A stretch of 64,000 nt of DNA from Candidatus Woesearchaeota archaeon (GTDB lineage: Archaea; Nanobdellota; Nanobdellia; Woesearchaeales; UBA583): contig OZ242164.1 of the NCBI GenBank assembly GCA_965205335.1, forward strand, positions 128,001 through 192,000, given 5' to 3'. Positions 38,468-55,405 of the stretch are shown piece after piece (positions within the stretch are counted from its first letter, which is position 1; the number at the start of each line of letters is the position of its first letter). Below the pieces are notes generated by a model. The model saw only the letters and a program-made list of their open reading frames with translations. It was not told where the DNA came from and made no database searches. Position numbers and translations under genes: made by a program.

Positions 38468-38791
38468 TTAACTTAGTTTTGAATTTTCAAAGTCTTCTTT
38501 TTTAATTAAAACATATTTTTCCACATTCTGTAATAATTCATTTGACCTTGAAAAATTAGTATTTCTGTCTCTATTAAAATAAGTGTAAAGAATTGTTTTA
38601 ACTCCCTTTTTGTAAGCATTGTTTATCGCAGGAATAAAATCAGTATCACATGCAATTAGAATTACATTTTTTATATTTGGATATTTAGCAGAAGTCTCAA
38701 TTAAATCAATAGTTAGCAAAGTATCAACTCCTTTTTGAGAAAACTTGTACCTATTACCCTCTTTTACTCTTTGACACCTTCCTTCTCTTAT
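38468..38791 (-). pseudogene. 3' half of a class-1 NYN gene (chimera of the 17426 and 9477 copies)
   Basis: Body matches 17428-17737; tail and flank match 9449-9490. Confidence 0.85.
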
Positions 38792-39895
38792 GTTATCATC
38801 AAGTCTTTATTTTTCATAAATTTAACTAAAAATTTTGATTTCTTTATTTATAAAAGTTTAATCCATTCTATAAGTTATTAGAAAATTAAGTATTTAAGAA
38901 TAATTCCTTTGCATCTAAATATTAAAAGTAGAAATTCAAATTCCTATTGTCTTACTATCATTGAGTAGAGAAAACTATATAAATAATAATCTCTTATTAT
39001 TTTAAGTATTAAAGAGAGTTTTCACAATAAAACTCTTAAATGTTAAAAGGCATGCATTTAGTTATTTAAGAATCATATAAACTTTATATGATGGTGCAAG
39101 TTTCTTTTTAATTAACAATGGAAACAACAATTAATTTAGAAGAGAGAATAGGAAACCATATATATAATGGAGATTTTATGGGAGGAATAGAAAGTCCTTC
39201 AAAGAGGAATTTTTTAAAGAAACTTGGGGTTGGTTTAGTTAGTTTAGTAGGTTATGCAACATTATGTAGTTCAGAGGCAAATGCGCAGGGCTTACCACCG
39301 GGGATAGCAAACTGCCGTGATAGAGCAATAAGAATATTATATAGAGATCAAGTTGGAGAAGACAGAGGAAGGAGCAGCTATGGAAGCATTAATAATAGGC
39401 TGAATGGTGTAATTGGTGGATTCTTTGACAGTGTATTAGTAGAGGATAAGTCAAAAAGGATTGAGCCGGCATTGTACTTGTTAAGAGAACAAATTAATCA
39501 CAAATACCGTAGTGGGCTTGGTATTACTGTTAGATTGCCGGAGGTTAGGGATGTGCCTCAGATGTTAAATTTTGATAGAGGAATTAAAAATTTTTATATT
39601 TCTTATATTTATCAGTGGGCAGGTCGTTATATCCCGCATGAAAAAAGCATAGGGAGTGAACAGACAAAAAGAGCGACTGAGAGTAATTTTGTCCATTCAA
39701 TAGCATACGCTGCATATTCTGATACTGAAACAGCAGAACAAAAAGCAAAAGAATATTTAGAGTCAGATATGGAAGGAAAAACAAGAGTAGTTATGGACAT
39801 AAAAAAACAATTTGAGGAAATGAGTAATGGAGACAAAGAATCAAGAGACCCAAGAGACCCGTACAACAGAAAACTCGCAGCATCCTGGAGTAGTT
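38782..39895 (+). repeat. Left arm of a ~1.11-kb inverted repeat
   Basis: Reverse complement of 54293-55405 (one 1-nt indel seen). Confidence 0.92.
38952..39117 (+). promoter_or_regulatory. 166-bp conserved cassette leader, copy 1
   Basis: BRE-TATA agaaaactatataaata, several hairpins and a T-tract; six copies in the window. Confidence 0.85.
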
Positions 39896-40035
39896 TTCGG
39901 CTTGAAAGAAGTATTTTTTTTGAACAGAATGGAACAGATAGTGATAGAAATTTATCAATAAATAGACACATAGAAATCCCTCTGAGAGAAGCAGTAGGGT
40001 TCAGAATCAGAGGACCTCCTCACTATAAACTCTAA
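39118..40035 (+). CDS. Putative secreted protein, family B1 (Tat-like signal)
   Basis: SKRNFLKK + hydrophobic stretch + ANA cleavage-like site. Confidence 0.8.
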   Translation: METTINLEERIGNHIYNGDFMGGIESPSKRNFLKKLGVGLVSLVGYATLCSSEANAQGLPPGIANCRDRAIRILYRDQVGEDRGRSSYGSINNRLNGVIGGFFDSVLVEDKSKRIEPALYLLREQINHKYRSGLGITVRLPEVRDVPQMLNFDRGIKNFYISYIYQWAGRYIPHEKSIGSEQTKRATESNFVHSIAYAAYSDTETAEQKAKEYLESDMEGKTRVVMDIKKQFEEMSNGDKESRDPRDPYNRKLAASWSSFRLERSIFFEQNGTDSDRNLSINRHIEIPLREAVGFRIRGPPHYKL

Positions 40036-40322
40036 TCTGCTTCTCCTTTCTCTTCTGTTCTCTGATGACCCTCATCATTTTGTTGTCTTCTGCAATTGTC
40101 TGATGATGTTAAGTAAAATTCTACTAAACCACTCTTACTAAAATTTAATATTTTTTCTGGCTGCTTTTGTCCTTCTACTTCTACTATTCTTTTAGATTCT
40201 AATGTGTATCTTAATGTTAATTTTGGTGGTTCTCTTGTTCCTGTAAAATGTTGTCCTACTTTTTCTGAGAAACTTCCACTTGTATTTAACTCCCTGAATC
40301 TTCCAATTAAGCCATCTGACAA
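40032..40322 (-). CDS. Convergent partner fragment, type A1, variable C-tail
   Basis: Constant to SSDNCRRQQ in three copies, then a unique tail; lacks a clear start. Confidence 0.55.
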   Translation of the reverse strand: MSDGLIGRFRELNTSGSFSEKVGQHFTGTREPPKLTLRYTLESKRIVEVEGQKQPEKILNFSKSGLVEFYLTSSDNCRRQQNDEGHQRTEEKGEAD

Positions 40323-40380
40323 ATTTATTTCTTTTGAGTCAAAATTTTTTAATCCAAGAGATAAATCTTCTATACCACCA

Positions 40381-40546
40381 TTACTATCATTGAGTAGAGA
40401 AAACTATATAAATAATAATCTCTTATTATTTTAAGTATTAAAGAGAGTTTTCACAATAAAACTCTTAAATGTTAAAAGGCATGCATTTAGTTATTTAAGA
40501 ATTATATAAACTTTATATGATGGTGCAAGTTTCTTTTTAATTAACA
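40381..40546 (+). promoter_or_regulatory. 166-bp cassette leader, copy 2
   Basis: Near-identical to 38952-39117. Confidence 0.85.
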
Positions 40547-41440
40547 ATGGAAACAGCAATTAATTTAGAAGAGCGAATAGGAAACCATATAGATAATAGG
40601 AATATAATGGGAGAGATAGAAAATCCTTCAAGAAGGAATTTTTTAAAAGGACTTGGGATTGGTTTAGCGGGTTATGCAATATTTGGTGGTTTAGAGGCAA
40701 ATGCACAAGGCAGATATGATAACATGGAATTATTAAGACAACATTTACCTCCCGGGATATTAAACTGCCGTGACAGAGCAATTAGAATACTATACGCTCA
40801 GGAAGTCTCTGGCCTCTGGGATGACTTTGGTAGGCTTTATTATAGAATGAAAAGTGAATTTAATGGGTACTACGACAGTGTAATAGTAGAACCTTGGTCA
40901 AGAAAGATTGAACCTGCAATGTATTTACTAAGAGAGCAAATTAATTACAAACGTGGAGGAATTTTTGCAGATTGGCGAAAGGTTACAGATGTGCCACAGA
41001 TGTTAGCTTTTGATGAGGGGATAAGATATTTTTATATTGCTTATGTTTATGGTAATGGTAATGAACAGACAAAAAGAACTACTGAAGATAAATTTGTCCA
41101 TTCAATAGCATACGCTGCATATTCTGATACTGAAACAGCAGAACAAAAAGCAAAAGAATATTTAGAGTCAGATATGGAAGGAAAAACAAGAGTAGTTATG
41201 GACATAAAAAAACAATTTGAGGAAATGAGTAATGGAGACAAAGAATCAAGAGACCCAAGAGACCCGTACAACAGAAAATTAATGGCATCTTGGAGTAGTC
41301 TTATGCTTGAACAGAGTTATTTTTTTGAACAGAATAGAACAGATAGTGAGAGGAATCTTTCAATAAACAGACATATAGAGATTCCCCTTAGAGAAGCAGT
41401 AGGGTTCAGAATCAGAGGACCTCCTCATTATAGATATTAA
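40547..41440 (+). CDS. Putative secreted protein, family B1 (Tat signal)
   Basis: SRRNFLKG...EANA; shares a block with 39118. Confidence 0.8.
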   Translation: METAINLEERIGNHIDNRNIMGEIENPSRRNFLKGLGIGLAGYAIFGGLEANAQGRYDNMELLRQHLPPGILNCRDRAIRILYAQEVSGLWDDFGRLYYRMKSEFNGYYDSVIVEPWSRKIEPAMYLLREQINYKRGGIFADWRKVTDVPQMLAFDEGIRYFYIAYVYGNGNEQTKRTTEDKFVHSIAYAAYSDTETAEQKAKEYLESDMEGKTRVVMDIKKQFEEMSNGDKESRDPRDPYNRKLMASWSSLMLEQSYFFEQNRTDSERNLSINRHIEIPLREAVGFRIRGPPHYRY

Positions 41441-41447
41441 TTTAATT

Positions 41448-41735
41448 TTATCCTGCACCAACTCCTTCACTTGTCAGATTATTCCCACTGCTTTGTTGTC
41501 TTCTGCAATTGTCTGATGATGTTAAGTAAAATTCTACTGAACCACTCTTACTAAAATTTAATATTTTTTCTGGCTGCTTTTGTCCTTCTACTTCTACTAT
41601 TCTTTTAGATTCTAATGTGTATCTTAATGTTAATTTTGGTGGTTCTCTTGTTCCTGTAAAATGTTGTCCTACTTTTTCTGAGAAACTTCCACTTGTATTT
41701 AACTCCCTGAATCTTCCAATTAAGCCATCTGACAA
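41448..41735 (-). CDS. Convergent partner fragment, type A1
   Basis: Same constant part; tail QQSSGNNLTSEGVGAG. Confidence 0.55.
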   Translation of the reverse strand: MSDGLIGRFRELNTSGSFSEKVGQHFTGTREPPKLTLRYTLESKRIVEVEGQKQPEKILNFSKSGSVEFYLTSSDNCRRQQSSGNNLTSEGVGAG

Positions 41736-41793
41736 ATTTATTTCTTTTGAGTCAAAATTTTTTAATCCAAGAGATAAATCTTCTATACTACCA

Positions 41794-41959
41794 TTACTAT
41801 CATTGAGTAGAGAAAATTATATAAATAACAATCTCTTATTATTTTAAGTATTAAAGAGAGTTTTCACAATAAAACTCTTAAATGTTAAAAGGCATGCATT
41901 TAGTTATTTAAGAATTATATAAACTTTATATGATGGTGCAAGTTTCTTTTTAATTAACA
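41794..41959 (+). promoter_or_regulatory. 166-bp cassette leader, copy 3
   Basis: Near-identical repeat. Confidence 0.85.
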
Positions 41960-42883
41960 ATGGAAACAACAATTAAATTAGAAAAGCGAATAGGAAACCA
42001 TATATATAATGGAAATTTTATGGAAGAGATAGAAAGTCCTTCAAAGAGGAGATTTTTAAAAGGATTATTAGGTGCGGGGGTTGTTGCAGTTACTCCAAAA
42101 TTAGCATTTGCACAAAGAAAGAAAAGAATCTCAGATGAAGCAAGAAATAGAATATGGGCAAACTACCCAGAAATGCAGGGTGCAATTGATTTGATAAACG
42201 ATGATGTTTTTGAGGGATTAATTGATTATGCAATGTATCCAAGTCAGGGATATTCTGACCCAAGAGGTATTCCCACATCAATAAGAAAAATACCAAGAGA
42301 AGACATTGGCACACCACACTATTGGCTTCTTTTAAAAATTTACGAAGATAATTACAATTATTATGCTGATGAAGGTGGAAATCCAGGAATGGGCGTTCCG
42401 CCTCCCCCCTCCCCACCATCAGGTGTGTGGTATTTTGCAAGAGGTTTGAGAGACAATAGTCCTGACAATGAAAGTGATTTACTTAAAGCATTGTACATAG
42501 GAGCAACAGGCAGTCCACAAGGAGCAGAACCAATAATCAATGGCACATTCATGAATGTACCCAGAGTTAGAGAAAAAGTAAGAGAATGGCGAGAGAGAAA
42601 TCAACTATCTTCAGATTTGGATGAAGAAGAACACTTATTGTTAGCTTATAACTTAAATGTATTAAGGGCAGTTAGATTTAGGGACGAGGAACTTGTTGAG
42701 TTAAGTCTTTTGGCATTAGAGGATTTTTATGATGGAGTTCGTGCTCCTTCAAAGAGTGACATTTATGGAGCGGAGATTATTGCAGATTTAACGAGAAGAG
42801 ACAAATTGCCAAGATATTCCATAATTGAGAGGACTGGTTCAAGTTTTGTTGTAACATCTCCCTTGCCAGTGCTGAGATTTTAA
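41960..42883 (+). CDS. Putative secreted protein, family B2 (Tat signal)
   Basis: SKRRFLKGLLGAGVVAVTPKLAFA. Confidence 0.8.
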   Translation: METTIKLEKRIGNHIYNGNFMEEIESPSKRRFLKGLLGAGVVAVTPKLAFAQRKKRISDEARNRIWANYPEMQGAIDLINDDVFEGLIDYAMYPSQGYSDPRGIPTSIRKIPREDIGTPHYWLLLKIYEDNYNYYADEGGNPGMGVPPPPSPPSGVWYFARGLRDNSPDNESDLLKALYIGATGSPQGAEPIINGTFMNVPRVREKVREWRERNQLSSDLDEEEHLLLAYNLNVLRAVRFRDEELVELSLLALEDFYDGVRAPSKSDIYGAEIIADLTRRDKLPRYSIIERTGSSFVVTSPLPVLRF

Positions 42884-43380
42884 CCTTTTTCTTTCACGCT
42901 TCTTGTATCTTGTACTTCACCACCACTTGTGATTCTGTTATTTGTTCTGGGATCACATTGTCTTATTCTGAATGTTCTTGATATTGTTACCGGTTCTTTA
43001 TTTTTTTTAGAATTTTTATTCTTTTGATGATATGTTAAGTACAGTGTAACTTCTTCTTCAGGTGTTCCCGTAGGAAGTTTATATCCTGACAAGTTTAATT
43101 CTCCTCTATAAAGATTATCTTTATATTCTAGTTCTCTTTCGGAATCTACTTCTACTTCCTTATCATCTCTTTTTACAGTTTTTTTATATTTGAATTTTTT
43201 AAACTTGTTCTTATCACTGTCTCTTCTCTGCTGTGCAAATGAAACTCTATAATCAAAATGTTTTCCATCATTATTTGTAATAGCAACAATTTCTTGTGTA
43301 TTATAATCAAAACCCTTCAAATTACTTACCGCTGAGATTATTACTGGTATGATTAAATCCTGTTCCTCCTCTTTATTTCT
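42880..43380 (-). CDS. Convergent partner fragment, type A2, variable C-tail
   Basis: DYRVSFAQQRRD...LSGYKLPTGTPEEEVTL...FRIRQC + unique tail; 5' end approximate. Confidence 0.55.
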   Translation of the reverse strand, partial: RNKEEEQDLIIPVIISAVSNLKGFDYNTQEIVAITNNDGKHFDYRVSFAQQRRDSDKNKFKKFKYKKTVKRDDKEVEVDSERELEYKDNLYRGELNLSGYKLPTGTPEEEVTLYLTYHQKNKNSKKNKEPVTISRTFRIRQCDPRTNNRITSGGEVQDTRSVKEKG

Positions 43381-43428
43381 TTTGAGTCAAAATTTTTTAA
43401 TCCAAGAGATAAATCTTCTATACTACTA

Positions 43429-43594
43429 TTACTATCATTGAGTAGAGATAACTATATAAATAACAATCTCTTATTATTTTAAGTATTAAAGAGAGTTTTC
43501 ACAATAAAACTCTTAAATGTTAAAAGGCACGCATTTAGTTATTTAAGAATTATATAAACTTTATATGATGGTGCAAGTTTCTTTTTAATTAACA
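43429..43594 (+). promoter_or_regulatory. 166-bp cassette leader, copy 4
   Basis: Near-identical repeat. Confidence 0.85.
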
Positions 43595-44533
43595 ATGGAA
43601 ACAGCAATTAATTTAGAAGAGCGAATAGGAAACCATATAGATAATGGAAATATTATGGAAGAGATAGAAAGTCCTTCAAAGAGGAGATTTTTAAAAGGAT
43701 TATTAGGTGCAGGAGTTATTGCAGTTACTCCAAAATTAGCATTTGCACAAAGAAGGAAGAAAATCTCAGATGAGGCAAGAGATAGGATTTGGAAAAACTA
43801 TCCAGAAATGCGAGATGTAATTAATATGATAAATGCAGGTAAAGGCAGAAATCACCTTGATTATGCACTGTTCCCCAATCAAGAAATATCTAATCTAAGA
43901 AATCTTCCTATAATGACCGACAAGATTCCAAAAGACGACATGGGGACACCGCAATACTGGCTTCTTGTAAGAATTGACAATCCAGGAACACGAAGTTATA
44001 ATCTGCTATTTGATGGCAGGCATGATCACCTTGGTGTTCCTCCACTTTCACCTCATACGGGAGTGTGGTATTTTGCAAGAAGTTTGAAAAGCAGAAGTTC
44101 TACTAACGAAAGTGATTTGCTTAAAGCCTTGTACATAGGAGCAACAGGCAGTCCACAAGGAGCAGAACCAATAATAAATGGTACATTTATGAATGTATCT
44201 GGAGTTAGAGAAAAAGTTAGGGAATGGAGAGAAGAATATGACTTTGCCCCACATTCAGATGAAGGAAATCATCTGTTAGCATATAATCTAAACATTCTCA
44301 GGGAAGCCATTTTCCCCAACACAGAACATTTTAAAGGCAGAGAACTTGTAGAATTAAGTCTTTTGGCACTGGAGGATTTTTATGATGAGGTTTATTCACC
44401 TGAAAAGAGTAATATCTATGGAGGAAGAATAGTTGGGGATTTAACGAAGAAGGATAAGTTGCCTGGATATTTTATGATTGATGAAGCAGGAGCAGAATCT
44501 CCTTTACCTGTGTTAAGATTTCATAGTAGGTAG
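43595..44533 (+). CDS. Putative secreted protein, family B2 (Tat signal)
   Basis: SKRRFLKG...LAFA; ESDLLKALYIGATGSPQGAEPIINGTFMN core. Confidence 0.8.
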   Translation: METAINLEERIGNHIDNGNIMEEIESPSKRRFLKGLLGAGVIAVTPKLAFAQRRKKISDEARDRIWKNYPEMRDVINMINAGKGRNHLDYALFPNQEISNLRNLPIMTDKIPKDDMGTPQYWLLVRIDNPGTRSYNLLFDGRHDHLGVPPLSPHTGVWYFARSLKSRSSTNESDLLKALYIGATGSPQGAEPIINGTFMNVSGVREKVREWREEYDFAPHSDEGNHLLAYNLNILREAIFPNTEHFKGRELVELSLLALEDFYDEVYSPEKSNIYGGRIVGDLTKKDKLPGYFMIDEAGAESPLPVLRFHSR

Positions 44534-44589
44534 CGAGAAAGAGAAATTAAAATTCCATTTATCGGTCTCTGATTGATTATTTCATCTTA

Positions 44590-45276
44590 TTAACTAACCC
44601 CTCCATCTTCTGGAGTTTTTGTTTTTTCTTTCCGTTGAACTCCACCACTTGTGATTCTGTCAATTGTTCTGGGATCACATTGTCTTATTCTGAATGTTCT
44701 TGATATAGTTACTGGTTCTTTATTTTTTTTAGGGTCTTTACTCTTTTGATGATATGTTATATACAGAGTAACTTCTTCTTCAGGAGTTCCTGTTGGAAGT
44801 TTATATCCTGACAAGTTTAATTCTCCTCTATAAAGATTATCTTTATATTCTAGTTCTACTTTTACTTTCTTTTCTCTGCCATTACTATCCTTAATTACAT
44901 TGCCATTATCATCCTTAAGTACAAGATCGAATTTTTTTTCTAACTTGTTCTTCTCATTATCTCTTCTCTGCTGTGCAAATGAAACTCTGTAATCAAAATT
45001 TTTGTTATCATCTCTTTCAATATTCATGATACTCTCATCATCATACTTGAACTTCTCCCAATTACTTACCGCAGAGATTATTACTGGTACAATTAAATCC
45101 TGTTCCTCCTCTTTGTTTCTGACACACAAGCTTTGCTTTTCAAATGGTCTTACTATATCAAATATGAAATTCATATCATCATCTTCTTCATTTTTAACGT
45201 TTGAAGCAACAGTAAATCTGAGTTCAAGTAAATCATTGACATCCACATTTCTTGACACATCTATGTCTTCACCCAT
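44590..45276 (-). CDS. Convergent partner, type A2 (longest copy; frame open upstream to ~45385)
   Basis: 228+ aa; same constant motifs as the copies at 42880 and 52471. Confidence 0.6.
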   Translation of the reverse strand: MGEDIDVSRNVDVNDLLELRFTVASNVKNEEDDDMNFIFDIVRPFEKQSLCVRNKEEEQDLIVPVIISAVSNWEKFKYDDESIMNIERDDNKNFDYRVSFAQQRRDNEKNKLEKKFDLVLKDDNGNVIKDSNGREKKVKVELEYKDNLYRGELNLSGYKLPTGTPEEEVTLYITYHQKSKDPKKNKEPVTISRTFRIRQCDPRTIDRITSGGVQRKEKTKTPEDGGVS

Positions 45277-45444
45277 TATACTATATTTTCTGAAATTATC
45301 TCTTGTTATACTTCCTGCATTGCTTGGTAAAAGTCTTAATAATAATCTACATTTTAATTCAGTAGTTTTATTTGTATTAAGACTTTTTCATAACATATAT
45401 AATTTAATAATAAACCCCCCTTTAAGTTGACAACTCATATAAAC

Positions 45445-46474
45445 GGCTCTGTCCATAAATTAATTTTTTTAAAATAAAAGAGATGAAAATACAATTTGAT
45501 ACTAAAACATTATCATTTTTCTTTTGAAAATTATCCAATTTTCATAGAAGAAAATTACATAAGAAAGTTTTTTTCTAATGTTATACCAAAGAATATTCCA
45601 TGCCATCTCCCTTTTTTTCATAAAATGTATCCTACTTCTGATATTTAGGCCTTGAACTCTCTTGAGTGATGAAAACACACTCTCGACATTGTTCCTTTTA
45701 TTGTATATTTCTTTGTTTTTGAAGTATTTTTGTTTGATTTTCCAATGCTTAAAAGCATTATGCTTGGTTTTTGCATAGTCTTTTGGCGGGAAAATCAAAT
45801 CTATATCTTTATCATTTAGAAAATCTAAATGATCAAAGGAAAAATATCCTTTGTCTGCCACAATAACACTCTTCTTTATTTTGAGTCTTTTGAAAAGTTT
45901 GTTTGCAACTTTTGAATCATGCTGATTCTTAACCAAGAAAGAATAATCAATTATTTGTTTAGAGCCTTGTACGTCACAAATTATATCTAATTTGTGCCAA
46001 GGTGATTTGGGTTCAAATCCAATCCGATGTTTGTAATAAGTAGTTTTATGGTCTGCATCAATTCCCGAACCATCAATTGCTACAAGGTCTGGATTAGGAT
46101 TTTCTAAAGAAAGTCTAATTAGGTTGCGGATAAAACTAACTGAGAAGAACTTTAACCACTTATGAAGTGTTGATTTCTTTGGAAGGCGTTTTAACTGCAA
46201 CCAATGCTTCCATGCGGTTAATGTGCCGTCTAGATTGCTTACAAACCTTCTAAAGGATTTTCCTGATTGGATGTATAAGACTATTATAGAAACTCTTTGA
46301 TAATTGTTAAAGAGTTTGCAACCCCTCACAAAATTGTGAGGCCTTAACCTTAAACTATGACAAAGTTTAAGTACTTCCTTATGTAAACTATTAGTAAAGT
46401 TGGTGTGTTCTAACATAAAAAACTATCAACTTTACACTTTATTAATTCTTCGATTTGAATTTATGGACAGTGCC
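45445..46474 (-). mobile_element. IS5-family insertion sequence, intact (1030 bp)
   Basis: 17-bp TIR GGC(T/A)CTGTCCATAAATT flanking a single transposase. Confidence 0.93.
45502..46416 (-). CDS. DDE transposase (IS5 family)
   Basis: AIDGSG, VADKGY, YNKRNNVESVFSSLKR. Confidence 0.93.
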   Translation of the reverse strand: MLEHTNFTNSLHKEVLKLCHSLRLRPHNFVRGCKLFNNYQRVSIIVLYIQSGKSFRRFVSNLDGTLTAWKHWLQLKRLPKKSTLHKWLKFFSVSFIRNLIRLSLENPNPDLVAIDGSGIDADHKTTYYKHRIGFEPKSPWHKLDIICDVQGSKQIIDYSFLVKNQHDSKVANKLFKRLKIKKSVIVADKGYFSFDHLDFLNDKDIDLIFPPKDYAKTKHNAFKHWKIKQKYFKNKEIYNKRNNVESVFSSLKRVQGLNIRSRIHFMKKREMAWNILWYNIRKKLSYVIFFYENWIIFKRKMIMF

Positions 46475-46522
46475 TACACTTGAATAAATTTATAAATAAA
46501 GAGAAATAAAAATACTTTAACT

Positions 46523-48730
46523 ATGAAGATAAATAAGAGGATACGATTATGTATTATTTTAGTGTCGTTGTTTTTCTTATTAGGAATTACTGGATGTGTG
46601 CAAGAACCAGTAATAGTAGAAGAGAATGGCAATACAACATCCAATATAATCGATACAGATTTTGAATATGAATTGTTTAATCAATCTCTGGAAATAAAAA
46701 ATTTCACATCAGAAACCCAACTTAGCGAATATTTAAAGAAGAATTCACAATCAGGTAGTTTCTATTATTCAGATGATTTTGCAACTTTTGGTACTTTTGA
46801 AGGAGATGTAGTCTTTGAAGCTTCTGCTCAAGCAGATTCTTCTGTCAGTGCAAAATCAATAGAGAGTGTTAGAGCAGATGATTACTCCCAGACAAATATA
46901 CAGGTTGAAGGTGTAGATGAGGCTGATTTTGTTAAAAATGATGGAAAATATATTTATATGATATTGCAGGGAAAATTAGTAATTGTAGATGCTTATCCTC
47001 CAAAAGAAGCGAAAATCATATCAAAAACAGAAATTAAAGGAAATCCTCAAAATTTATATATTAATAAAGATAGAGTTATAGTATTTGCATCAGATTATAA
47101 AAAAGTGCAAAAAATCTCAAGATATGATTTCATTCCAAAAGAAACCTCAGAAAGGCATACAATTGCATACATCTATAATGTTTCAGACAGGAAAAATCCA
47201 AAACTCTTAAAGGAATATTCTGCAACAGGAAATTATTTAGAGTCTCGGATGATTGAAGATTATATTTATTTTATATCAAAAGAATCTATCTATTACTATG
47301 ATGATGTAATCACTTTCCCTGAGGTGAGATTAGATGGGAACTTAATTAGCACCCCAGAAGTTTTTTATTTTGATATTCCAGAAAGCAGATATATATTTCA
47401 CACTTTTACAACTTTTAATATATATGAAGATAAAAAATCTAATGCAAAGACATTTATGCTTGGAGCATCAAACAATGTATATGTATCCCAAGATAATATT
47501 TATATAACTCATAAGAAAACATATCCAAGTTTGTTCTATAAGCAATTAGAAATTGATAAATTCTTCAAGGCAGTTGTCCCATTACTCCCTACCCAAGTTG
47601 CAGATAATATCTCAGAAATTAGAAGGGGGTTAGAGGATAACTCAATAGAATCTTATAATGCAATATGGAATGAAATATCTGTTGTTCTTGAAGATATGTA
47701 TAATTCTATGGAGAAGGATGAAAAATATGAATTAATTGATAAAATTGAAGAATCTTTAATTGAGTATGAAACCGAGATTGAAGATAAGATTTCATCATCT
47801 GTTGTTCATAAAATCTCAATTAATGAAGACGAGATTGAATATTTAACAAACGGAGAGGTCAAGGGAACACTTTTAAATCAGTTTTCAATGGATGAAAAAG
47901 ATGGAAATTTAAGGGTTGCAACAACAACTAACTCTTTTTCACGTCAAAGAGGCAGAGTTATGTATAATAATGTATATGTGTTAGATGAAGATTTAGAAAT
48001 TATCGGAAAAATTGAAAAGATTGCACCTGATGAGAGAATTTATTCAACAAGATTTATGGGAGATAAACTTTATATGGTAACATTTAAACAAATAGACCCG
48101 TTATTTACAATTGATTTGTCTAACCCAGAAGAACCTAAAATAATAGGACAGTTAAAAATTCCCGGATTTTCAAATTATCTTCACCCGTATGATGAGAATC
48201 ATTTAATAGGGATTGGACAGGATACATACGTGAATGATCGTGGGGGGGTTAGAACAAAAGGAGTTAAGATTTCATTATTTGATGTTTCAGATTTTGAGAA
48301 TCCAAGAGAGGTTGATAATGTTATTATCGGAGATGAGGGTTCTTATTCGGAGGTTTTAAATGATCATAAAGCACTTTTGTTTAGCCGTGAAAAGAATTTA
48401 CTTGTACTGCCAATTAGAGAAGTATCTGATAACTATAAAACAGATAGAGGCGGGTATTTTAGAAACAGAGTTTGGAATGGGGCTTATGTGTTTACAGTTA
48501 CGCCTGACGGGTTTAGCGAGCGGGGAAAGATAAAACATTCAGATAAAGAATATGATACATATTATTGGAGTTCACCAAGTTCAGTAAGAAGAGCATTATA
48601 CTTAGATGATAATTTATACACGATTTCAGATGAGTATATTAAAATTAATGATTTAAACACTATTGATGAGATAGGAGATATAAAACTGCCTTATAATGAT
48701 AGATGGTATTATGATTATTGGTATAAATAA
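46523..48730 (+). CDS. Secreted beta-propeller domain protein, probable lipoprotein
   Basis: LLGITGC lipobox-like motif; YSQTNIQVEGVDEADFVKNDG; LLNQFSMDE; VTFKQIDPLF; LKIPGFSNYLHP. Confidence 0.92.
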   Translation: MKINKRIRLCIILVSLFFLLGITGCVQEPVIVEENGNTTSNIIDTDFEYELFNQSLEIKNFTSETQLSEYLKKNSQSGSFYYSDDFATFGTFEGDVVFEASAQADSSVSAKSIESVRADDYSQTNIQVEGVDEADFVKNDGKYIYMILQGKLVIVDAYPPKEAKIISKTEIKGNPQNLYINKDRVIVFASDYKKVQKISRYDFIPKETSERHTIAYIYNVSDRKNPKLLKEYSATGNYLESRMIEDYIYFISKESIYYYDDVITFPEVRLDGNLISTPEVFYFDIPESRYIFHTFTTFNIYEDKKSNAKTFMLGASNNVYVSQDNIYITHKKTYPSLFYKQLEIDKFFKAVVPLLPTQVADNISEIRRGLEDNSIESYNAIWNEISVVLEDMYNSMEKDEKYELIDKIEESLIEYETEIEDKISSSVVHKISINEDEIEYLTNGEVKGTLLNQFSMDEKDGNLRVATTTNSFSRQRGRVMYNNVYVLDEDLEIIGKIEKIAPDERIYSTRFMGDKLYMVTFKQIDPLFTIDLSNPEEPKIIGQLKIPGFSNYLHPYDENHLIGIGQDTYVNDRGGVRTKGVKISLFDVSDFENPREVDNVIIGDEGSYSEVLNDHKALLFSREKNLLVLPIREVSDNYKTDRGGYFRNRVWNGAYVFTVTPDGFSERGKIKHSDKEYDTYYWSSPSSVRRALYLDDNLYTISDEYIKINDLNTIDEIGDIKLPYNDRWYYDYWYK

Positions 48731-48814
48731 ATGTAGATTATAAACTCAGATATGCTTAAAAAATTATACTTTATTTGTATATGTTTATAACTTGAATTTA
48801 TAATTTGCAGTTAC

Positions 48815-48942
48815 GGCTCTGTCCATAAATTCAAAAGAACTTAAAATATTATATAAATAAAGTAATTTTTGACAAATAATCTTTTTCTTTGATTGAATAT
48901 AGTTAGCATAGATTTTGGAGAAAACAATTTATGGACAGAGCC
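48815..48942. mobile_element. Family-1 MITE (right end of composite 2)
   Basis: Perfect TIR GGCTCTGTCCATAAATT, 128 bp. Confidence 0.92.
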
Positions 48943-49308
48943 ATATAAACGATAATTTTATAAATATATTATATAATTAATTGTTTAAACAATTTGCTTA
49001 ATAGCCATATATGGAGAATATGACTATTAGTTTGCTTGGGTTAGGTAACGAATATTAAAATATTCGTATTTGGCTTATTACGCTTATTCTAATATTTGAA
49101 ATAAAACACACGTTGCCTATCCTACTTACTTTAAACGTTTAGATTTTAAATAGTTATCGCTTAATTTTCCAAAGATCTTTAGTGTTCTTTTACTCCTTTT
49201 CAGAAAAGAGAAAAATTTATGAATGAACACCCTTTTTAATTTTTATGGAAGGAATTAATAAATATTTAAAAAACGCTTCTAAGAGTGGAAGGGGGGAGGG
49301 AGGACAAT

Positions 49309-49773: not shown

Positions 49774-49821
49774 GAAACTATTGAATCAAACTAAACAAAT
49801 TTTAGAAGAAAACATAATCTA

Positions 49822-49911
49822 CTATTGTAGATATAATACGATATAAATAATAATTATAATTATGCCAATAATAATAAACATACTAATTTGGGATTTCTTT
49901 GCCTTACTCAT
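49822..49911 (-). pseudogene. Class III (pilin-type) signal peptide mini-ORF or remnant
   Basis: MSKAKKSQ-ISMFIIIGIIIIIIYIVLYLQ*. Confidence 0.45.
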
Positions 49912-50107
49912 ATATTCATTACCTAATATTAAATAACACATTTATAATATATGAGGTATGAAAATATTTATAAGTTTATTGAATATGAAAAAAAATTATT
50001 TTTAAATATCAGAATGTGCATATAATATTATGGAAAAAGAACGCAAATGGATGAGTGTTAGTTGGAGGTTTGATAAAAACGGAAATACAATTGGTAAAAA
50101 ACCAGTG

Positions 50108-50170
50108 TGTAGTGCCATGACATATGTCACCAGTCTAAAGATTAACAATTCTTGTTAACTTTCTTAAAAA
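50108..50170. mobile_element. Family-2 MITE end
   Basis: TGTAGTGCCATGACATATGTCACCAGTCTAAA matches the 12995-13050 end in reverse. Confidence 0.65.
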
Positions 50171-50390
50171 ACTTTGAGACAGCCTATCTCCAATAAAAAG
50201 AATAAGAGGGAAAGTATCTGATATTGAAGGGGAAATAGAGTTCAAATAGAGATTAAATCTTCAAGTTAAATATGATATTCATATTTTCTGTTACTTCTTC
50301 GTTTAACTCGTGTAAACCTTCTAACTTCTCTGTTATTTCTTCTTCCGACTTCTTGACCTTAGTTTTCTTCATATTTGTTGATTGACAAAG

Positions 50391-50615
50391 TTATTTATAT
50401 ATATTTTTTCTTAAGCCCAAATATTTGACATAAAGTTCCTTTTCCTCAAAATTAATACTAATTAATGTCCTATGATTTCCAATTTTAAGTTTATAATATT
50501 TATCTCCTTCGTAATGTTCTAAATAATGAAAAGGGTTACTTTCAAGTTTTTTTAACTTAACTTTTGTATCTATTATTAAATAGATTTTAAAAAAGATTTT
50601 CTTGATGAATTTCAA
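50391..50615 (-). CDS. RelE/ParE-like toxin (possibly degenerate)
   Basis: LESNPF...YYKLKIGNHR...LGLRKNIY. Confidence 0.65.
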   Translation of the reverse strand: MKFIKKIFFKIYLIIDTKVKLKKLESNPFHYLEHYEGDKYYKLKIGNHRTLISINFEEKELYVKYLGLRKNIYK

Positions 50616-50638
50616 AAGTAAAAACCAAATGGTAAAAT

Positions 50639-51961
50639 TTACAGAGATTTACCGTTATTAACAATTGAATTAAATTTATCGCTCCTAATGAAAATACTTC
50701 TATTTCCTGCTGATTTCTCAATCAAAAACCCTAAATTTACCAGTTTTTGCAAATCACTTCTAGCAGTTTGTTTTGTAATTACAAATCTCTGTGAGATTTC
50801 TAAAACTGAAAAAATTCTATTCTTATCACTTTCATAAAAACCTAAGATTTGAGCTTGTCTCTCTGTCAAATCCCCATATTTTAAGAACTTCATTGAACTT
50901 CTCTTCTCTTTTAACTTTCTTTCAATATATGCTCTTAAATCATTAAAAGCTAATTCAATTTTATCAACTTTATAATTAATAAAATATGTTAAGTCATTAT
51001 CATCAATTTCTGAATATACGTAAGCTTTAGAATATTGAGAATGACTCTTTATAATAATTCTTGATATACTAATATATTCAAATAGCCAGTAATTATTTGA
51101 GATAAGGTAAAGAAAAAAAATACATCTTGCACATCTTCCGTTTCCATCATAAAATGGATGTATATATCCAAGTAAGAAATGTAATATATTTGCTTTTATA
51201 ATTGGATGTATAAAGAATTTCTGTTCATTATTATAAAAATCACAAAAATCATCTATTAATCTTCCTAATTCTTTCTTACTTGGAGGAATATGATAAACTT
51301 CTCCTGTAATTCTGTCTGCAACTTTGATTTCATCTGTGTTTCTGAATTTTCCTTCGTAATCTACCTTCTCTAACGTTTTGGATGTAATTATCTGATGGAG
51401 TTCCAATAAAATCTCTTTTGTTAGTTTTTCCCCTTTTAAGTCTAAAATTCTTTTCATTGCAAGAAAATTGTTTAAAATCATCTTTTGACTTTTATCTTTA
51501 GGTTTTTTTCTGTTTAGAATCATATCCTTTGCAACTTTTATTGTTGTGCTTGCACCCTCTAACCTTGATGAATTAATTGATTCCTCAATAATTGAATTTA
51601 TTAAAAATCTATCTATTTCATCACTGGGGATTATTCCATTAACTGTTAAACTACCCCCTAAATTTAAGTCAAAATTGTGCAACTTCTCTAAAGTACTACT
51701 TGTTAAGTTAAAACAAAATCTGTACTTTCCAATCTTAATTGATTTTAAATTCTTCATTCTTTCAAGTTTCATCATATGCCAAATATCCTCTCTTGATATA
51801 CCTCTAGGAATATTCTTGTAGTATAATTTCTCCCAATAAATATATTTCTCATTGTATTCTTTGACTAATTCTCTAAATTTTGAATTTGATATGTATGCTT
51901 TAAAAATTCTAGATAAATACTCAGAATCAGCCTTCTTAGGAGGTATTTTTGGAAATCTCAT
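50639..51961 (-). CDS. Fic-domain protein with C-terminal HTH
   Basis: HPFYDGNGRCAR; SSRLEG inhibitory-type motif; TARSDLQKL HTH. Confidence 0.92.
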   Translation of the reverse strand: MRFPKIPPKKADSEYLSRIFKAYISNSKFRELVKEYNEKYIYWEKLYYKNIPRGISREDIWHMMKLERMKNLKSIKIGKYRFCFNLTSSTLEKLHNFDLNLGGSLTVNGIIPSDEIDRFLINSIIEESINSSRLEGASTTIKVAKDMILNRKKPKDKSQKMILNNFLAMKRILDLKGEKLTKEILLELHQIITSKTLEKVDYEGKFRNTDEIKVADRITGEVYHIPPSKKELGRLIDDFCDFYNNEQKFFIHPIIKANILHFLLGYIHPFYDGNGRCARCIFFLYLISNNYWLFEYISISRIIIKSHSQYSKAYVYSEIDDNDLTYFINYKVDKIELAFNDLRAYIERKLKEKRSSMKFLKYGDLTERQAQILGFYESDKNRIFSVLEISQRFVITKQTARSDLQKLVNLGFLIEKSAGNRSIFIRSDKFNSIVNNGKSL

Positions 51962-52054
51962 TCTAATATTAGAATTACTTACTTATTTATAAAATTTGTG
52001 TAAATGGTAAAATTTACAGAAATTTACCATTATTGACAACAGCATTTACATAAA

Positions 52055-52683
52055 GTGAAGAAGAGGTTAAATGAAAGAGGAGATGATGTTTACTGGACAT
52101 GGAATAGTGATGACATTCATTTAGCATTTGATTTAGTTAGACCGTTTGAAAAGCAAAGTGTTTGTGTCAGAAATAAAGAAGAGGAACAAGATCTAAATGT
52201 ATCAGTAATAATCTCTGCGGTAAGTAATTTGAAGGATTTTAAGTATATAATGTAAATATTAAAAACAATGATGTAGATGATGATATAGAAAAAGTTCCTA
52301 ATTATTTTGATTATAGAGTTTCATTTGCACAGCAGAGAAGAGATAGTGATAAGAACAAGTTTAAAAAATTCAAATATAAAAAAACTGTAAAAAGAGGTGA
52401 TAAGGAAGTAGAAGTAGATTCCGAAAGAGAACTAAATTATACAGATAATCTTTATAGTGGAATTTTAAACTTGTCAGGATATAAACTTCCAACAGGAACT
52501 CCTGAAGAGGAAGTTACACTGCATATAACTTATCATAAAAAAGATAAAGAACCAGTAACAATATCAAGAACATTCAGAATAAGACAATGTAATCCTGGAA
52601 TAATTGACAGAACCTCTACAGATGACGGTGATGATCCTAGTATTAAGGGAAGCTCTGGGGGAGATATTCCTAGTCAAGAATAA
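52055..52683 (+). pseudogene. Convergent partner type A2, frameshifted and fused to a NYN fragment
   Basis: KRLNERG..DDIHLAFDLVR (NYN-like) joined to PFEKQSVCVRNKEEEQDL; C-terminal FRIRQC + unique tail. Confidence 0.65.
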
Positions 52684-52690
52684 TTATGAG

Positions 52691-53632
52691 TTAAAATCTT
52701 AATCTTGGTAAAGGATCTCTTACAACATAAATTGAACCATCTCTTTCAATTATAGAATATTCTGGCAACTTTCCTTTTTCTGTTAGGTCTTCAATTACCC
52801 ATGCCCGATAAAGACTTCTCCTTTCAGGAGAATTAGTTCTATCATAAAAATCCGCCAATGTTAAAAGACTTAGTTCTACAAGTTCTTTATCTCTAAAATC
52901 CACGTTCCTGAGAATATTCACATTATATGCTAATAGGTGATTTCCTTCGTCTGAAAATGGAGCAAAGTCATATTTTTCTTTCCATTCTCTTACTTTTTCT
53001 CTAACTCCAGATGCATTCATAAATGTACCATTTATTATTGGTTCTGCTCCTTGTGGACTGCCTGTTGCTCCTACATATAATGATTTAAGTAAATCACTTT
53101 CATTGTCAGGACTATTGTCTCTCAAACCTCTTGCAAAATACCACACACCTGAAGGGGGAGAGGGGGGAGGCGGAACGTCTAACCCTGGATCTCCGTCCTC
53201 ATCGGCAAAGAAATTATAATCATCATCTGCATGAATTTTTAAAAGAAGCCAATAGTGTGGTGTGTCCATATCTTCGCTTGATATTTTATCTATTGATGTA
53301 GGAATACCTCTTGGACTATAATATCCCTGATCTGGATACATTGCATAATCAATTAATACATCATCAACGGATTCATCATTCACATAATTATCATTTATCA
53401 AGTCAATTGCTCCTTGCATTTCTGGGTAGTTTGCCCAAATCCTATTTCTTGCTTCATCTGAGATTTTCTTCCTTCTTTGTGCAAATGCTAATTTTGGAGT
53501 AACTGCAATAACTCCTGCACCTAATAATCCTTTTAAAAATCTCCTCTTTGAAGGACTTTCTATCTCTTCCATAAAATTTCCATTATATATATGGTTTCCT
53601 ATTCGCTTTTCTAATTTAATTGCTGTTTCCAT
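52691..53632 (-). CDS. Putative secreted protein, family B2 (Tat signal)
   Basis: Mosaic of blocks shared with 41960 and 43595. Confidence 0.8.
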   Translation of the reverse strand: METAIKLEKRIGNHIYNGNFMEEIESPSKRRFLKGLLGAGVIAVTPKLAFAQRRKKISDEARNRIWANYPEMQGAIDLINDNYVNDESVDDVLIDYAMYPDQGYYSPRGIPTSIDKISSEDMDTPHYWLLLKIHADDDYNFFADEDGDPGLDVPPPPSPPSGVWYFARGLRDNSPDNESDLLKSLYVGATGSPQGAEPIINGTFMNASGVREKVREWKEKYDFAPFSDEGNHLLAYNVNILRNVDFRDKELVELSLLTLADFYDRTNSPERRSLYRAWVIEDLTEKGKLPEYSIIERDGSIYVVRDPLPRLRF

Positions 53633-53798
53633 TGTTAATTAAAAAGAAACTTGCACCATCATATAAAGTTTATATAATTCTTAAATAACTAAATGCATGC
53701 CTTTTAACATTTAAGAGTTTTATTGTGAAAACTCTCTTTAATACTTAAAATAATAAGAGATTGTTATTTATATAATTTTCTCTACTCAATGATAGTAA
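53633..53798 (-). promoter_or_regulatory. 166-bp cassette leader, copy 5
   Basis: Reverse complement of the leader repeat. Confidence 0.85.
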
Positions 53799-53856
53799 TG
53801 GTGGTATAGAAGATTTATCTCTTGGATTAAAAAATTTTGACTCAAAAGAAATAAAT

Positions 53857-54147
53857 TTGTCAGATGGCTTAATTGGAAGATTCAGGGAGTTAAATACAAG
53901 TGGAAGTTTCTCAGAAAAAGTAGGACAACATTTTACAGGAACAAGAGAACCACCAAAATTAACATTAAGATACACATTAGAATCTAAAAGAATAGTAGAA
54001 GTAGAAGGACAAAAGCAGCCAGAAAAAATATTAAATTTTAGTAAGAGTGGTTTAGTAGAATTTTACTTAACATCATCAGACAATTGCAGAAGACAACAAC
54101 AAGGAGATGTAGGGGGAGTAGGTGATGCCGATGAAGGGGAAATTTAA
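53857..54147 (+). CDS. Convergent partner fragment, type A1
   Basis: Same constant part; tail QQQGDVGGVGDADEGEI. Confidence 0.55.
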   Translation: MSDGLIGRFRELNTSGSFSEKVGQHFTGTREPPKLTLRYTLESKRIVEVEGQKQPEKILNFSKSGLVEFYLTSSDNCRRQQQGDVGGVGDADEGEI

Positions 54148-54149
54148 TG

Positions 54150-55070
54150 TTAATATTTATAATTATAGTGGGGGGGTCCTCTAATCTTAAATCCTACATC
54201 TTCTCTTAATGGTGCTTCTATATTTCTATTTATAAGTAAGCCTATTTCCATTTGATTACCCCTACTAGGGCGATAATTTACTACAAGCCAATAACTACTC
54301 CAGGATGCTGCGAGTTTTCTGTTGTACGGGTCTCTTGGGTCTCTTGATTCTTTGTCTCCATTACTCATTTCCTCAAATTGTTTTTTTATGTCCATAACTA
54401 CTCTTGTTTTTCCTTCCATATCTGACTCTAAATATTCTTTTGCTTTTTGTTCTGCTGTTTCAGTATCAGAATATGCAGCGTATGCTATTGAATGGACAAA
54501 ATTACTCTCAGTCGCTCTTTTTGTCTGTTCACTCCCTATGCTTTTTTCATGCGGGATATAACGACCTGCCCACTGATAAATATAAGAAATATAAAAATTT
54601 TTAATTCCTCTATCAAAATTTAACATCTGAGGCACATCCCTAACCTCCGGCAATCTAACAGTAATACCAAGCCCACTACGGTATTTGTGATTAATTTGTT
54701 CTCTTAACAAGTACAATGCCGGCTCAATCCTTTTTGACTTATCCTCTACTAATACACTGTCAAAGAATCCACCAATTACACCATTCAGCCTATTATTAAT
54801 GCTTCCATAGCTGCTCCTTCCTCTGTCTTCTCCAACTTGATCTCTATATAATATTCTTATTGCTCTATCACGGCAGTTTGCTATCCCCGGTGGTAAGCCC
54901 TGCGCATTTGCCTCTGAACTACATAATGTTGCATAACCTACTAAACTAACTAAACCAACCCCAAGTTTCTTTAAAAAATTCCTCTTTGAAGGACTTTCTA
55001 TTCCTCCCATAAAATCTCCATTATATATATGGTTTCCTATTCTCTCTTCTAAATTAATTGTTGTTTCCAT
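54150..55070 (-). CDS. Putative secreted protein, family B1
   Basis: Identical to 39118 up to AASWSS, then a different C-terminus. Confidence 0.8.
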   Translation of the reverse strand: METTINLEERIGNHIYNGDFMGGIESPSKRNFLKKLGVGLVSLVGYATLCSSEANAQGLPPGIANCRDRAIRILYRDQVGEDRGRSSYGSINNRLNGVIGGFFDSVLVEDKSKRIEPALYLLREQINHKYRSGLGITVRLPEVRDVPQMLNFDRGIKNFYISYIYQWAGRYIPHEKSIGSEQTKRATESNFVHSIAYAAYSDTETAEQKAKEYLESDMEGKTRVVMDIKKQFEEMSNGDKESRDPRDPYNRKLAASWSSYWLVVNYRPSRGNQMEIGLLINRNIEAPLREDVGFKIRGPPHYNYKY

Positions 55071-55405
55071 TGTTAATTAAAAAGAAACTTGCACCATCAT
55101 ATAAAGTTTATATGATTCTTAAATAACTAAATGCATGCCTTTTAACATTTAAGAGTTTTATTGTGAAAACTCTCTTTAATACTTAAAATAATAAGAGATT
55201 ATTATTTATATAGTTTTCTCTACTCAATGATAGTAAGACAATAGGAATTTGAATTTCTACTTTTAATATTTAGATGCAAAGGAATTATTCTTAAATACTT
55301 AATTTCTAATAACTTATAGAATGGATTAAACTTTTATAAATAAAGAAATCAAAATTTTTAGTTAAATTTATGAAAAATAAAGACTTGATGATAACATAAG
55401 AGAAG
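54293..55405 (-). repeat. Right arm of the ~1.11-kb inverted repeat
   Basis: Reverse complement of 38782-39895. Confidence 0.92.
55071..55236 (-). promoter_or_regulatory. 166-bp cassette leader, copy 6
   Basis: Reverse complement of the leader repeat. Confidence 0.85.

Follow-up and report, generated by a model that had tools for sequence, protein, structure and literature searches.

Mosaic cassettes for putative exported proteins in a Woesearchaeota genome: a multigene family probably reshuffled by ordinary homologous recombination

Contact with other cells is essential to DPANN archaea, and to our knowledge almost nothing is known about the exported proteins that mediate this contact or about their diversification. 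Invertible-segment switches and shufflons are typified by Hin, Gin and Cin, the R64 shufflon and the invertible loci of Mycoplasma and Bacteroides, and arrays of orphan cassettes from polymorphic toxin, Rhs and contact-dependent inhibition (CDI) systems have reportedly been described by Zhang et al. in 2012 and, for archaea, by Makarova et al. in 2019. Two silent-cassette systems that act by gene conversion, Neisseria pilE/pilS and Borrelia vlsE/vls, are covered in the available parts of their sources (PMC11499132, PMC2632889), and the Mycobacterium tuberculosis PE/PPE genes represent, in the accessible portion of another report, a bacterial multigene family with concerted evolution (PMC13061034). 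In the available text of Castelle et al. (2021; PMC8204110), some Woese- and Pacearchaeota with small genomes are proposed to bind bacterial cell walls, and large extracellular murein-transglycosylase-like proteins of these archaea are described. The present study concerns a 64-kb window, that is, the whole stretch of DNA analyzed (bases 128001-192000 of the single-contig, 1.2-Mb, 95%-complete genome of a Candidatus Woesearchaeota archaeon), and within it an array of cassettes encoding two protein families, here called A and B, which an earlier note made from the sequence alone had regarded as potentially invertible. Our analysis suggests that the array is probably a horizontally acquired multigene family that was amplified and reshuffled by ordinary homologous recombination and is not a programmed switch.

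All six cassette genes that had been proposed, four on the forward strand and two on the reverse strand, were recovered as open reading frames (ORFs) at the positions listed in Table 1. The distinction of two body families also held: family A has three members (starting at 39118, 40547 and 55070), and family B has four (41960, 43595, 53632 and a seventh copy outside the window). A search with positions 40324-40546 as the leader query yielded seven matches in the 1.2-Mb genome, six of them inside the window; the genome-wide count of leaders that had been recommended added a single copy, at genome positions 754808-754973. The core of the 166-nt leader was 97.8-100% identical in all seven copies, in agreement with the claim of a common leader, and the leader contains TATA-like tracts and an 8-bp palindrome (AGAGTTTT-N6-AAAACTCT). 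Structured RNA in the leader was not indicated, as its predicted fold was unremarkable (z = -1.83) and 10 of 200 shuffled sequences folded equally well. Upstream of the leader, a 57-nt extension that stems from c96, one of the small downstream ORFs described below, is common to the units placed behind another cassette (U2-U5), and the free-standing units (U1, U6 and U7) share a different extension of about 50 nt. The N-terminal pattern MET.I.LE.RIGNHI was found in all six window copies, as had been noted, and the N-terminal ~45 codons are 61-86% identical between families A and B. The seventh copy carries an in-frame 15-codon deletion and keeps METTIKLEKRI followed by EPSRRRF; because this deletion removes the second Met, the first ATG is argued to be the start. 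A gene for an rve-type integrase of an insertion sequence (IS) lies directly upstream of the leader of the seventh cassette (L013:3828-4691; genome 753827-754690), and a ParE-like toxin gene is located near this cassette.

The signal that had been recognized as resembling those of twin-arginine translocation (Tat) was borne out most clearly by A2, which scored 16.5 bits on TIGR01409 (cut-off, 16.7); the other copies gave weaker Tat-type matches. An S/T-R-R-x-F-L-K motif, a hydrophobic stretch and an AxA site were identified (SRRNFLKGLG...ANAQ in A2), and the remaining copies have KR or RR variants of the motif with lower Tat-model scores than A2. These features suggest that the A and B proteins are exported. 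The AlphaFold2 model of A2 was all-helical with a predicted local distance difference test score (pLDDT) of 83.7, and the model of B was helical and weaker (pLDDT, 62.4). Remote homology between A and B was considered and rejected (hhalign probability, 4%), and the hidden Markov model of B matched none of the A-superfamily representatives among 146 stored proteins. Profile searches of the PDB and a search of the ESM Atlas gave no usable match for A or B.

The patchwork relationships quoted in the earlier note were correct, as the tail of A1 was 83% identical to that of A2 and 49% identical to that of A3, and B3 shares its N-terminal part with B1 and its mid-C part with B2. Sliding identity between U1 and U2 (family A) was 97-100% in the leader, 35-78% in the N-terminal part of the body, 100% over a core of ~180 nt, 80-90% in the tail and 100% in c96. 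In family B, the first half of the gene was 33-72% identical between U4 and U7. A 656-nt tract that begins at codon 189 of B2 shows three differences from genome positions 755508-756163, which comprise part of the seventh cassette (B7) and the 3' end of a giant gene for an 1838-residue surface protein. The 128 informative quartet sites of family B were split 98/15/15, with 98 supporting the grouping (B1,B3|B2,B7), and the 30 discordant sites were concentrated in columns 401-700. The number of pattern switches along the alignment was 31, compared to 49.4 ± 3.3 in shuffles, and 0 of 10,000 shuffles were as low. Synonymous divergence (dS) was 0-0.06 in the homogenized blocks and 0.4-1.9 in the variable blocks. 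Abrupt identity blocks (98-100% directly beside 35-70%) and clustered discordant patterns, the marks expected of interlocus gene conversion, were thus both found, and gene conversion among the paralogues is strongly supported. The exchange is recent, since the 1.1-kb inverted repeat described below has no substitutions and the 656-nt tract has only three differences over a distance of 580 kb. The proposal of ongoing gene conversion or inversion is therefore upheld in its first part, as recent conversion, and is not supported with respect to inversion. A diversity-generating retroelement was not indicated either: no reverse transcriptase domain was detected among the 53 window ORFs scanned with Pfam (18 + 20 + 15; in the block, 18 of the 27 ORFs of at least 80 aa, with nine antisense or overlapping frames omitted, and outside the block, ORFs of at least 100 aa), and the differences between copies lie in blocks and are not adenine-specific.

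A comparison of nonsynonymous and synonymous rates (dN/dS) among the paralogues, which had been recommended as a check, spoke against the diversification that had been proposed. The ratio was 0.12-0.82 wherever it was defined and never exceeded 1 in any segment. The array is apparently a case of old alleles re-assorted under purifying selection and not of rapid positive diversification. The analogy with antigenic-variation loci is not supported for A and B, as seven of the seven copies possess a leader and a full ORF, dN/dS is below 1 and the variable segments are old alleles; with all seven copies complete, there is no arrangement of one expression site plus silent copies for these genes. The module boundary after ASWSS recurs in bacterial homologues. 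Proteins P0029 and P0033 are 86% identical in the body and 32% identical in the variable tail, and one of these tails matches A1 and the other A3, each at 60% identity; the A3 tail type (YWLVVNYRPSRGNQ...) is the one also found in P0033. A third tail type is common to P0024, whose body is 86% identical to that of A2, and the Binatota protein P0038. In family B, P0006 combines the N-terminal half of B3 with a different C-terminal half, and the middle segments of homologues with a Cys-rich N-terminus (P0009-P0018) match B1, B2 or B3. Specificity may be determined by the exchangeable segments, particularly by the A tail.

The 1.11-kb inverted repeat that bounds the block was confirmed as near-perfect, with no substitutions and a single 1-nt indel in an A-run at 38882, and its inner end lies past the AASWSS codons, as claimed. 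Its outer left edge adjoins a truncated copy of an NYN-domain gene: positions 38478-38791 (314 nt) are 100% identical to 17424-17737, within an intact NYN gene 21 kb away, and 103 aa of the fragment match the full gene (17426-17998) at 100% (tblastn). The junction falls within a 10-nt microhomology, CTTCTCTTAT, that is common to the NYN gene and the context of the right arm, which argues for a recent rearrangement and not for a dedicated recombination site. Because the 336 upstream nucleotides and codons 1-259 are the same in both arms, the two genes and their promoters would be unaltered by a crossover. The suggestion that such a crossover would invert ~14.4 kb therefore stands only insofar as RadA-type recombination could flip the segment, but no protein or promoter would be altered. 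By sequence logic, both chimeras are present in either orientation, and a role of the inversion as a generator of variants is not supported. The statement that no recombinase is visible also needs revision, since a DDE_Tnp_1 transposase gene lies inside the block; it was correct for serine and tyrosine site-specific recombinases and invertases, none of which was detected among the 53 ORFs, a set that does not extend to small and antisense ORFs. The most fitting interpretation of the repeat is a tract left by very recent copying or conversion, not a switch, and it is the youngest such tract of the array.

A small convergent ORF follows every cassette, and its stop codon overlaps or abuts that of the cassette. 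After the A genes this ORF is c96, which is present in three nearly identical copies with a TTG start and a frame that stays open for 27 codons upstream, into the next leader. A phmmer search with the extended frame against 3,713 ORFs of the genome matched only its own three copies. After the B genes it belongs to a family here called d, with members of 146 aa and 228 aa and one frame-broken copy. The d sequence also ends the 1838-aa ORF at the seventh locus, which identifies the d ORFs of the window as 5'-truncated copies of the giant gene. The protein encoded by the latter has a signal peptide and no Pfam domain, and could be a core protein of the surface or of host contact, as its gene was detected in all 19 other genomes of the genus, that of the present archaeon making 20. 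Its C-terminal ~250 residues gave the weakest matches in relatives. The d copies are composed of conserved blocks around hypervariable patches with indels, and their dN/dS is 0.52-0.67. By analogy with d, c96 may be a passenger 3' gene fragment carried along by duplication. A single family comprising c96 and d was considered and rejected, as no BLASTP alignment was obtained between them, and a role of both as immunity partners of A and B was likewise rejected, as d represents giant-gene fragments, one of them frame-broken. Neither c96 nor d matched any Pfam, NCBIfam, PADLOC or PHROG entry. Synteny downstream of the giant gene was compared in two relatives and showed no usable conservation.

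Among 400 further genomes of the phylum with a completeness of at least 90%, none was matched by the profiles of A and B, and the B protein was found in none of 40 relatives, 19 of them from the same genus. A word-indexed search retrieved 22 proteins for B (six from this genome) and 30 for A (three from this genome) on contigs of up to 5.7 Mb, and the bacterial homologues are 40-60% identical. An exhaustive profile search with A yielded 102 representative clusters, 57 of them at E ≤ 1e-10 and 18 at E ≤ 1e-30. Among 44 A representatives scanned with Pfam, one matched PG_binding_1, four matched Tat-signal models and 39 matched nothing; fusions to PG_binding_1 are present in P0053 and P0049 (the latter from precomputed annotation). 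The named carriers of A are two metagenome-assembled genomes (MAGs), one from Binatota and one from Gammaproteobacteria, and the gene stands alone at both loci; in one MAG an IS3-type ORF, read from the translation, is adjacent. B was not found in either of these genomes. In the groups to which the carriers belong, A is equally sporadic, with one weak 74-aa match among 242 other genomes of one order and none among 250 other genomes of the other phylum. Scans of a set of viral contigs and a set of metagenome contigs gave no match to B, and the metagenome set searched with A contained one distant locus (24% identity). The nearest outside relatives of A (P0023), B (P0008) and d (P0051) each lie on a 4978-nt contig, and we infer that P0023, P0008 and P0051 share one contig. 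The sharing of one N-terminus between unrelated bodies also occurs in metagenome relatives (P0032 and P0007).

The GC content at third codon positions (GC3) of the seven genes is 0.19-0.26, close to the genome mean of 0.247 ± 0.055, so the genes are either long resident or from an AT-rich donor. Together with the lack of matches in the 400 other genomes of the phylum, this composition indicates genes that are foreign to the lineage and were not freshly imported from a GC-rich donor. In run X3 of the sequencing data described below, a contig of depth 23.6, compared to ~4-10 for the archaeon, matches 284 nt of B1 (window 42155-42438) at 95% identity. The 5' flank of this contig is GC-rich and encodes ..ISDYARDCI.., the Cys-rich N-terminus type of P0009-P0018, so another organism in the sample carries a B body that is almost the same. 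This observation suggests that the B body was shared very recently between organisms of different GC content.

Starting from the observed anatomy, mosaicism, d fragments, foreign distribution and junction structure, the history of the horizontally acquired family may be outlined as follows. A portable unit, consisting of a promoter region of ~166-217 nt and a twin-arginine signal of ~45 codons, would drive two unrelated, all-helical exported proteins of ~250 residues, A and B. The array would have grown by segmental duplication, both tandem and inverted, and each duplicated unit would have dragged along the 3' end of the convergent downstream gene, as seen for d and presumed for c96. The leader and signal, the conserved internal blocks and the dragged-along 3' fragments would then have served as homology anchors, so that gene conversion could homogenize some blocks to 98-100% and re-assort old, diverged alleles elsewhere. 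The right arm (A3-c96-B3-d) may have been expanded into the left arm (A1-c96-A2-c96-B1-d-B2-d), after which the first 1.1 kb of A3 would have been copied over the leftmost cassette, producing the inverted repeat with its outer junction at the NYN-fragment microhomology and its inner junction at the family-wide boundary past ASWSS.

Several points weigh against this reading. TatC (PF00902) and TatA (PF02416) were unmatched in the 95%-complete genome, in which the control searches gave matches and SecY was found, so the export of A and B is predicted only; seven genes with Tat-type signals in a genome without a detectable Tat pathway are a puzzle. Family B also has RRKK immediately past the predicted cleavage site. 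Neither A nor B matched any Pfam, NCBIfam, PADLOC or PHROG family, Foldseek searches against PDB and BFVD returned nothing at E ≤ 0.001, and VIA-align returned only tetratricopeptide repeat-like rows (Z ≤ 8) of a kind common for helical models. The status of c96 as a fragment is an argument from analogy, as its parent gene was not found in the genome. The read data consist of short Logan contigs from one sample, so that the exchange can be called recent and at most possibly ongoing. Selection on a regulatory element, and not conversion alone, could account for the near-invariance of the leader. Finally, the direction of copying at the repeat is tentative, and the exchange between the array and the seventh locus fits either direction.

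Among the other explanations, a silent-cassette reservoir, in which the three truncated d copies would rewrite the C-terminal ~250 residues of the 1838-residue protein while A and B ride along, is unlikely but has specific points in its favor. One full-length gene accompanies three 5'-truncated copies, the 656-nt tract with its three differences joins d228 to the 3' end of the giant gene, the d copies bear hypervariable patches with indels (alignment columns 1500-1700), and the C-terminus of the giant protein is the part that is most weakly matched in relatives. However, this exchange is compatible with either direction, only three donors are available, one of which has decayed, their dN/dS of 0.5-0.67 is uninformative, and passengers of duplication explain the fragments more simply. 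The idea can be enlarged to a surface-variation system of two layers, with swappable A and B bodies and tails at seven sites and with d donors that rewrite the C-terminus of the giant protein, and this version is equally doubtful; the swaps would possibly extend to co-resident organisms. If true, this system on the cell surface of an episymbiotic archaeon would be the first pilS/vls-like cassette system in Archaea and would serve host recognition, not immune evasion. That inversion at the repeat, or at other inverted paralogue pairs, brings about a programmed phase or antigenic variation of A and B seems quite improbable. The cassettes do occur in both orientations with 14 inverted pairs longer than 150 nt, mosaics exist, and new chimeras would arise from a crossover of B3 with B1 (713 nt, 98% identical) or with B2. 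Nevertheless, inversion at the main repeat leaves every protein and promoter unchanged, the 53 ORFs scanned include no invertase, every copy is complete with its promoter, dN/dS is below 1, and the contig joints on opposite strands represent mapping ambiguity.

Slightly less probable again is the possibility that the array is functionless foreign DNA, recently amplified, not exported and kept through duplication in an IS-rich island. TatA and TatC were not found, 100%-identical duplications, IS copies and miniature inverted-repeat transposable elements (MITEs) abound in the island, and the families were not found in relatives, all of which would fit. Against it stand seven of seven intact ORFs, dN/dS of 0.1-0.5 between copies, codon usage that matches the host, ~10 kb kept in a 1.2-Mb genome and an in-frame deletion in B7 with the signal retained. 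We consider a polymorphic effector or toxin array, with a common trafficking N-terminus, toxic bodies and cognate protective partners, to be very improbable. The unrelated bodies that share an N-terminus, including the metagenome relatives P0032 and P0007, the setting within an island of defense and toxin-antitoxin (TA) genes, and a sporadic distribution suggestive of horizontal transfer are what such an array would show, but the shared N-terminus is merely a signal peptide and the bodies are highly conserved, not hypervariable. Moreover, no toxin domain was matched in Pfam, NCBIfam, PADLOC or PHROGs, the adjacent ORFs are convergent and represent 3' pieces of a surface-protein gene, one of them decayed, and the bacterial homologues stand at two loci without such partners. 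An assembly artefact, that is, collapsed or mis-joined paralogues, is scarcely credible: the 1.1-kb repeats exceed the length of short reads, but the genome is a single 1.2-Mb contig, the copies differ over long unique stretches, and contigs possibly derived from the source sample cover the unique stretches and cross the right arm's inner edge without a mismatch.

Table 1. Features of the cassette array and of the related seventh locus (window positions unless marked as genome positions).
Feature	Coordinates	Strand	Remarks
A1, family A, 305 aa	39118-40035	+	N-terminal part equal to that of A3; tail A2-like
A2, family A, 297 aa	40547-41440	+	
B1, family B, 307 aa	41960-42883	+	
B2, family B, 312 aa	43595-44533	+	C-terminal half almost identical to that of B7
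B3, family B, 313 aa	52691-53632	-	
A3, family A, 306 aa	54150-55070	-	Second tail type (YWLVVNYRPSRGNQ...)
B7, seventh cassette, family B	genome 754808-755882		580 kb from the array
Leader/promoter region, 166 nt	38952-39117, 40381-40546, 41794-41959, 43429-43594	+	
Leader/promoter region, 166 nt	53633-53798, 55071-55236	-	
Left repeat arm	38782-39895	+	336 nt upstream and A1 codons 1-259
Right repeat arm	54293-55405	-	Upstream region and A3 codons 1-259
Truncated NYN-domain gene copy (3' part)	38478-38791	-	Left junction of the array
656-nt conversion tract	44159-44814		B2 3' half, spacer and last 75 codons of d228
c96, 96 codons	40032-40322, 41448-41735	-	After each A gene
c96, 96 codons	53857-54147	+	After each A gene
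d146	42880-43371	-	Shorter copy of the same giant-gene 3' end
d228	44590-45330	-	Corresponds to the final ~246 codons of the 1838-aa gene, copied
Third d copy	52109-52620	+	Degraded, frame-broken, adjoins B3
1838-aa surface-protein gene	genome 755942-761456 (L013:5940-11456)		Next to the seventh cassette
IS transposase (DDE_Tnp_1)	45502-46416	-	Center of the block; Pfam E 6e-21
Signal-peptide beta-propeller protein (PF09826)	46523-48730	+	Between the repeat arms
MITE-like element, 129 nt	48815-48943		17-nt terminal inverted repeats (GGCTCTGTCCATAAATT...)
Fic/SoFic-type protein, C-terminal helix-turn-helix	50639-51961	-	Between the repeat arms

The genome is archaeal, small and AT-rich: its small-subunit ribosomal RNA scored 1320 bits on the archaeal model and 1041 bits on the bacterial model, and its GC content is 31%. 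No Rfam or tRNA match was found in the window. The locus was present in three runs of one sample, which is possibly the source of the assembly, as short Logan contigs of depth 4-10. These contigs match unique parts of the array, and one that covers 53745-54633, with 0 mismatches, reaches across the inner boundary of the right arm. Contig joints that appeared to connect opposite strands (42458/53202 and 44330/53021) were rejected as evidence of inversion, as they fall in near-identical stretches of paralogues and represent mapping ambiguity. Read variants at 44367 and 44509 coincide with sites at which U4 and U7 differ and were set aside as likely cross-mapping between paralogues.

Pfam and PADLOC scans characterized the 64-kb window as a dense island of defense, TA and mobile genes. 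In positions 1-38700 and 50639-51961, the island contains an OLD-like TOPRIM ATPase, M78+DUF4411, a RecQ-like helicase, a PIN protein, RhuM, five NYN genes or fragments, two ORF6N/Rha genes, an MNT-HEPN pair, an AbiEii-like ATPase, ParE, a CARF/PD-(D/E)xK-like protein, a DarG-like fragment, a DUF2779/Cas4-like protein and SoFic. The IS transposase at the center of the block has three more full-length copies and several partial copies in the genome, and a frameshifted copy lies at 19715-20627. For the MITE-like element, a blastn listing showed more than 50 full or partial genomic copies (83-97% identical), and contig depth in the runs was very high at its site. Dispersed duplications of 97-100% identity link 17424-17737 with 38478-38791 (NYN), 10193-10492 with 18124-18423 (ORF6N region) and 19647-20457 with 45437-46246 (IS). 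To judge from its sequence, the island recombines beyond the cassette array. Five tandem repeats of ~324 nt (71-94% identical) occupy 13953-15539 within an 867-aa ORF (13083-15686). The neighbor of the array is a gene for an 885-aa S-layer-like protein (56401-59058), which has a 70%-identical paralogue and a partial third copy at genome positions 431014-433404 and 510871-511925; on the right of the array, a 750-nt segment (~55750-56500) shares 97% identity with genome positions 511829-512577.

About 10 kb of this 1.2-Mb genome is occupied by seven intact copies of two uncharacterized protein families, which are concrete candidates for host-interaction factors. The A and B proteins may act outside the cell, possibly on the envelope of a partner cell. 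The array is a clean natural case, in an archaeon, of interlocus gene conversion and modular re-assortment of alleles, in which the copies exchange segments with one another and with the 3' end of a giant surface-protein gene conserved in the genus. It also illustrates that even a conspicuous long inverted repeat is not necessarily a switch. A literature search, in the parts of the sources that were available, returned no report on the A and B families or on cassette-type variation in archaea; the families are new, and the mechanism of gene conversion is already known in kind.

The array resembles pilE/pilS and vlsE/vls in its clustered, related sequences with conserved flanks and variable blocks, in the segmental conversion that yields mosaics, and in the truncated d copies that accompany one full-length surface-protein gene. 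It differs from them in that seven of the seven A and B copies are complete with a promoter and no single expression site exists, and in that its variable blocks consist of old alleles kept under purifying selection; no adaptive immune system has to be evaded here, and d is a candidate donor at most. As in invertible switches, inverted repeats flank a segment and end inside a coding region, so that C-termini could be exchanged. In contrast to those switches, the repeat measures 1.1 kb instead of tens of bases and includes the promoter, a site-specific recombinase was not found among the 53 ORFs, and the coding output is the same in both orientations. Polymorphic toxin arrays likewise combine a constant N-terminal part with alternative bodies and are arrayed, horizontally spread and provided with a conserved recombination junction. 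In the present array, however, the constant part amounts to no more than a signal peptide, neither an immunity gene nor a recognizable toxin domain was found, and the bodies are 40-60% identical across domains of life.

With the proteins described in the available text of Castelle et al. (2021; PMC8204110), A and B share a bacterial affinity, predicted export and occurrence in a small-genome DPANN archaeon, and family A is fused to PG_binding_1 in two bacterial homologues. They differ from those proteins, as far as that text describes them, in showing no sequence or fold similarity to lytic transglycosylases and in having a size of ~300 aa instead of being giant. The two domain fusions, taken with what is available of PMC8204110, give a hint that A may be linked to peptidoglycan. 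A parallel in kind to the preferred reading, a multigene family reshaped by recombination between its own copies, may be sought in the PE/PPE genes, in which, according to the accessible part of the source (PMC13061034), paralogues are homogenized and re-assorted by interlocus conversion and diversity hotspots arise in exported proteins. The present array differs from PE/PPE in that its host is archaeal and in that two unrelated, phylum-foreign families share one promoter and signal module.

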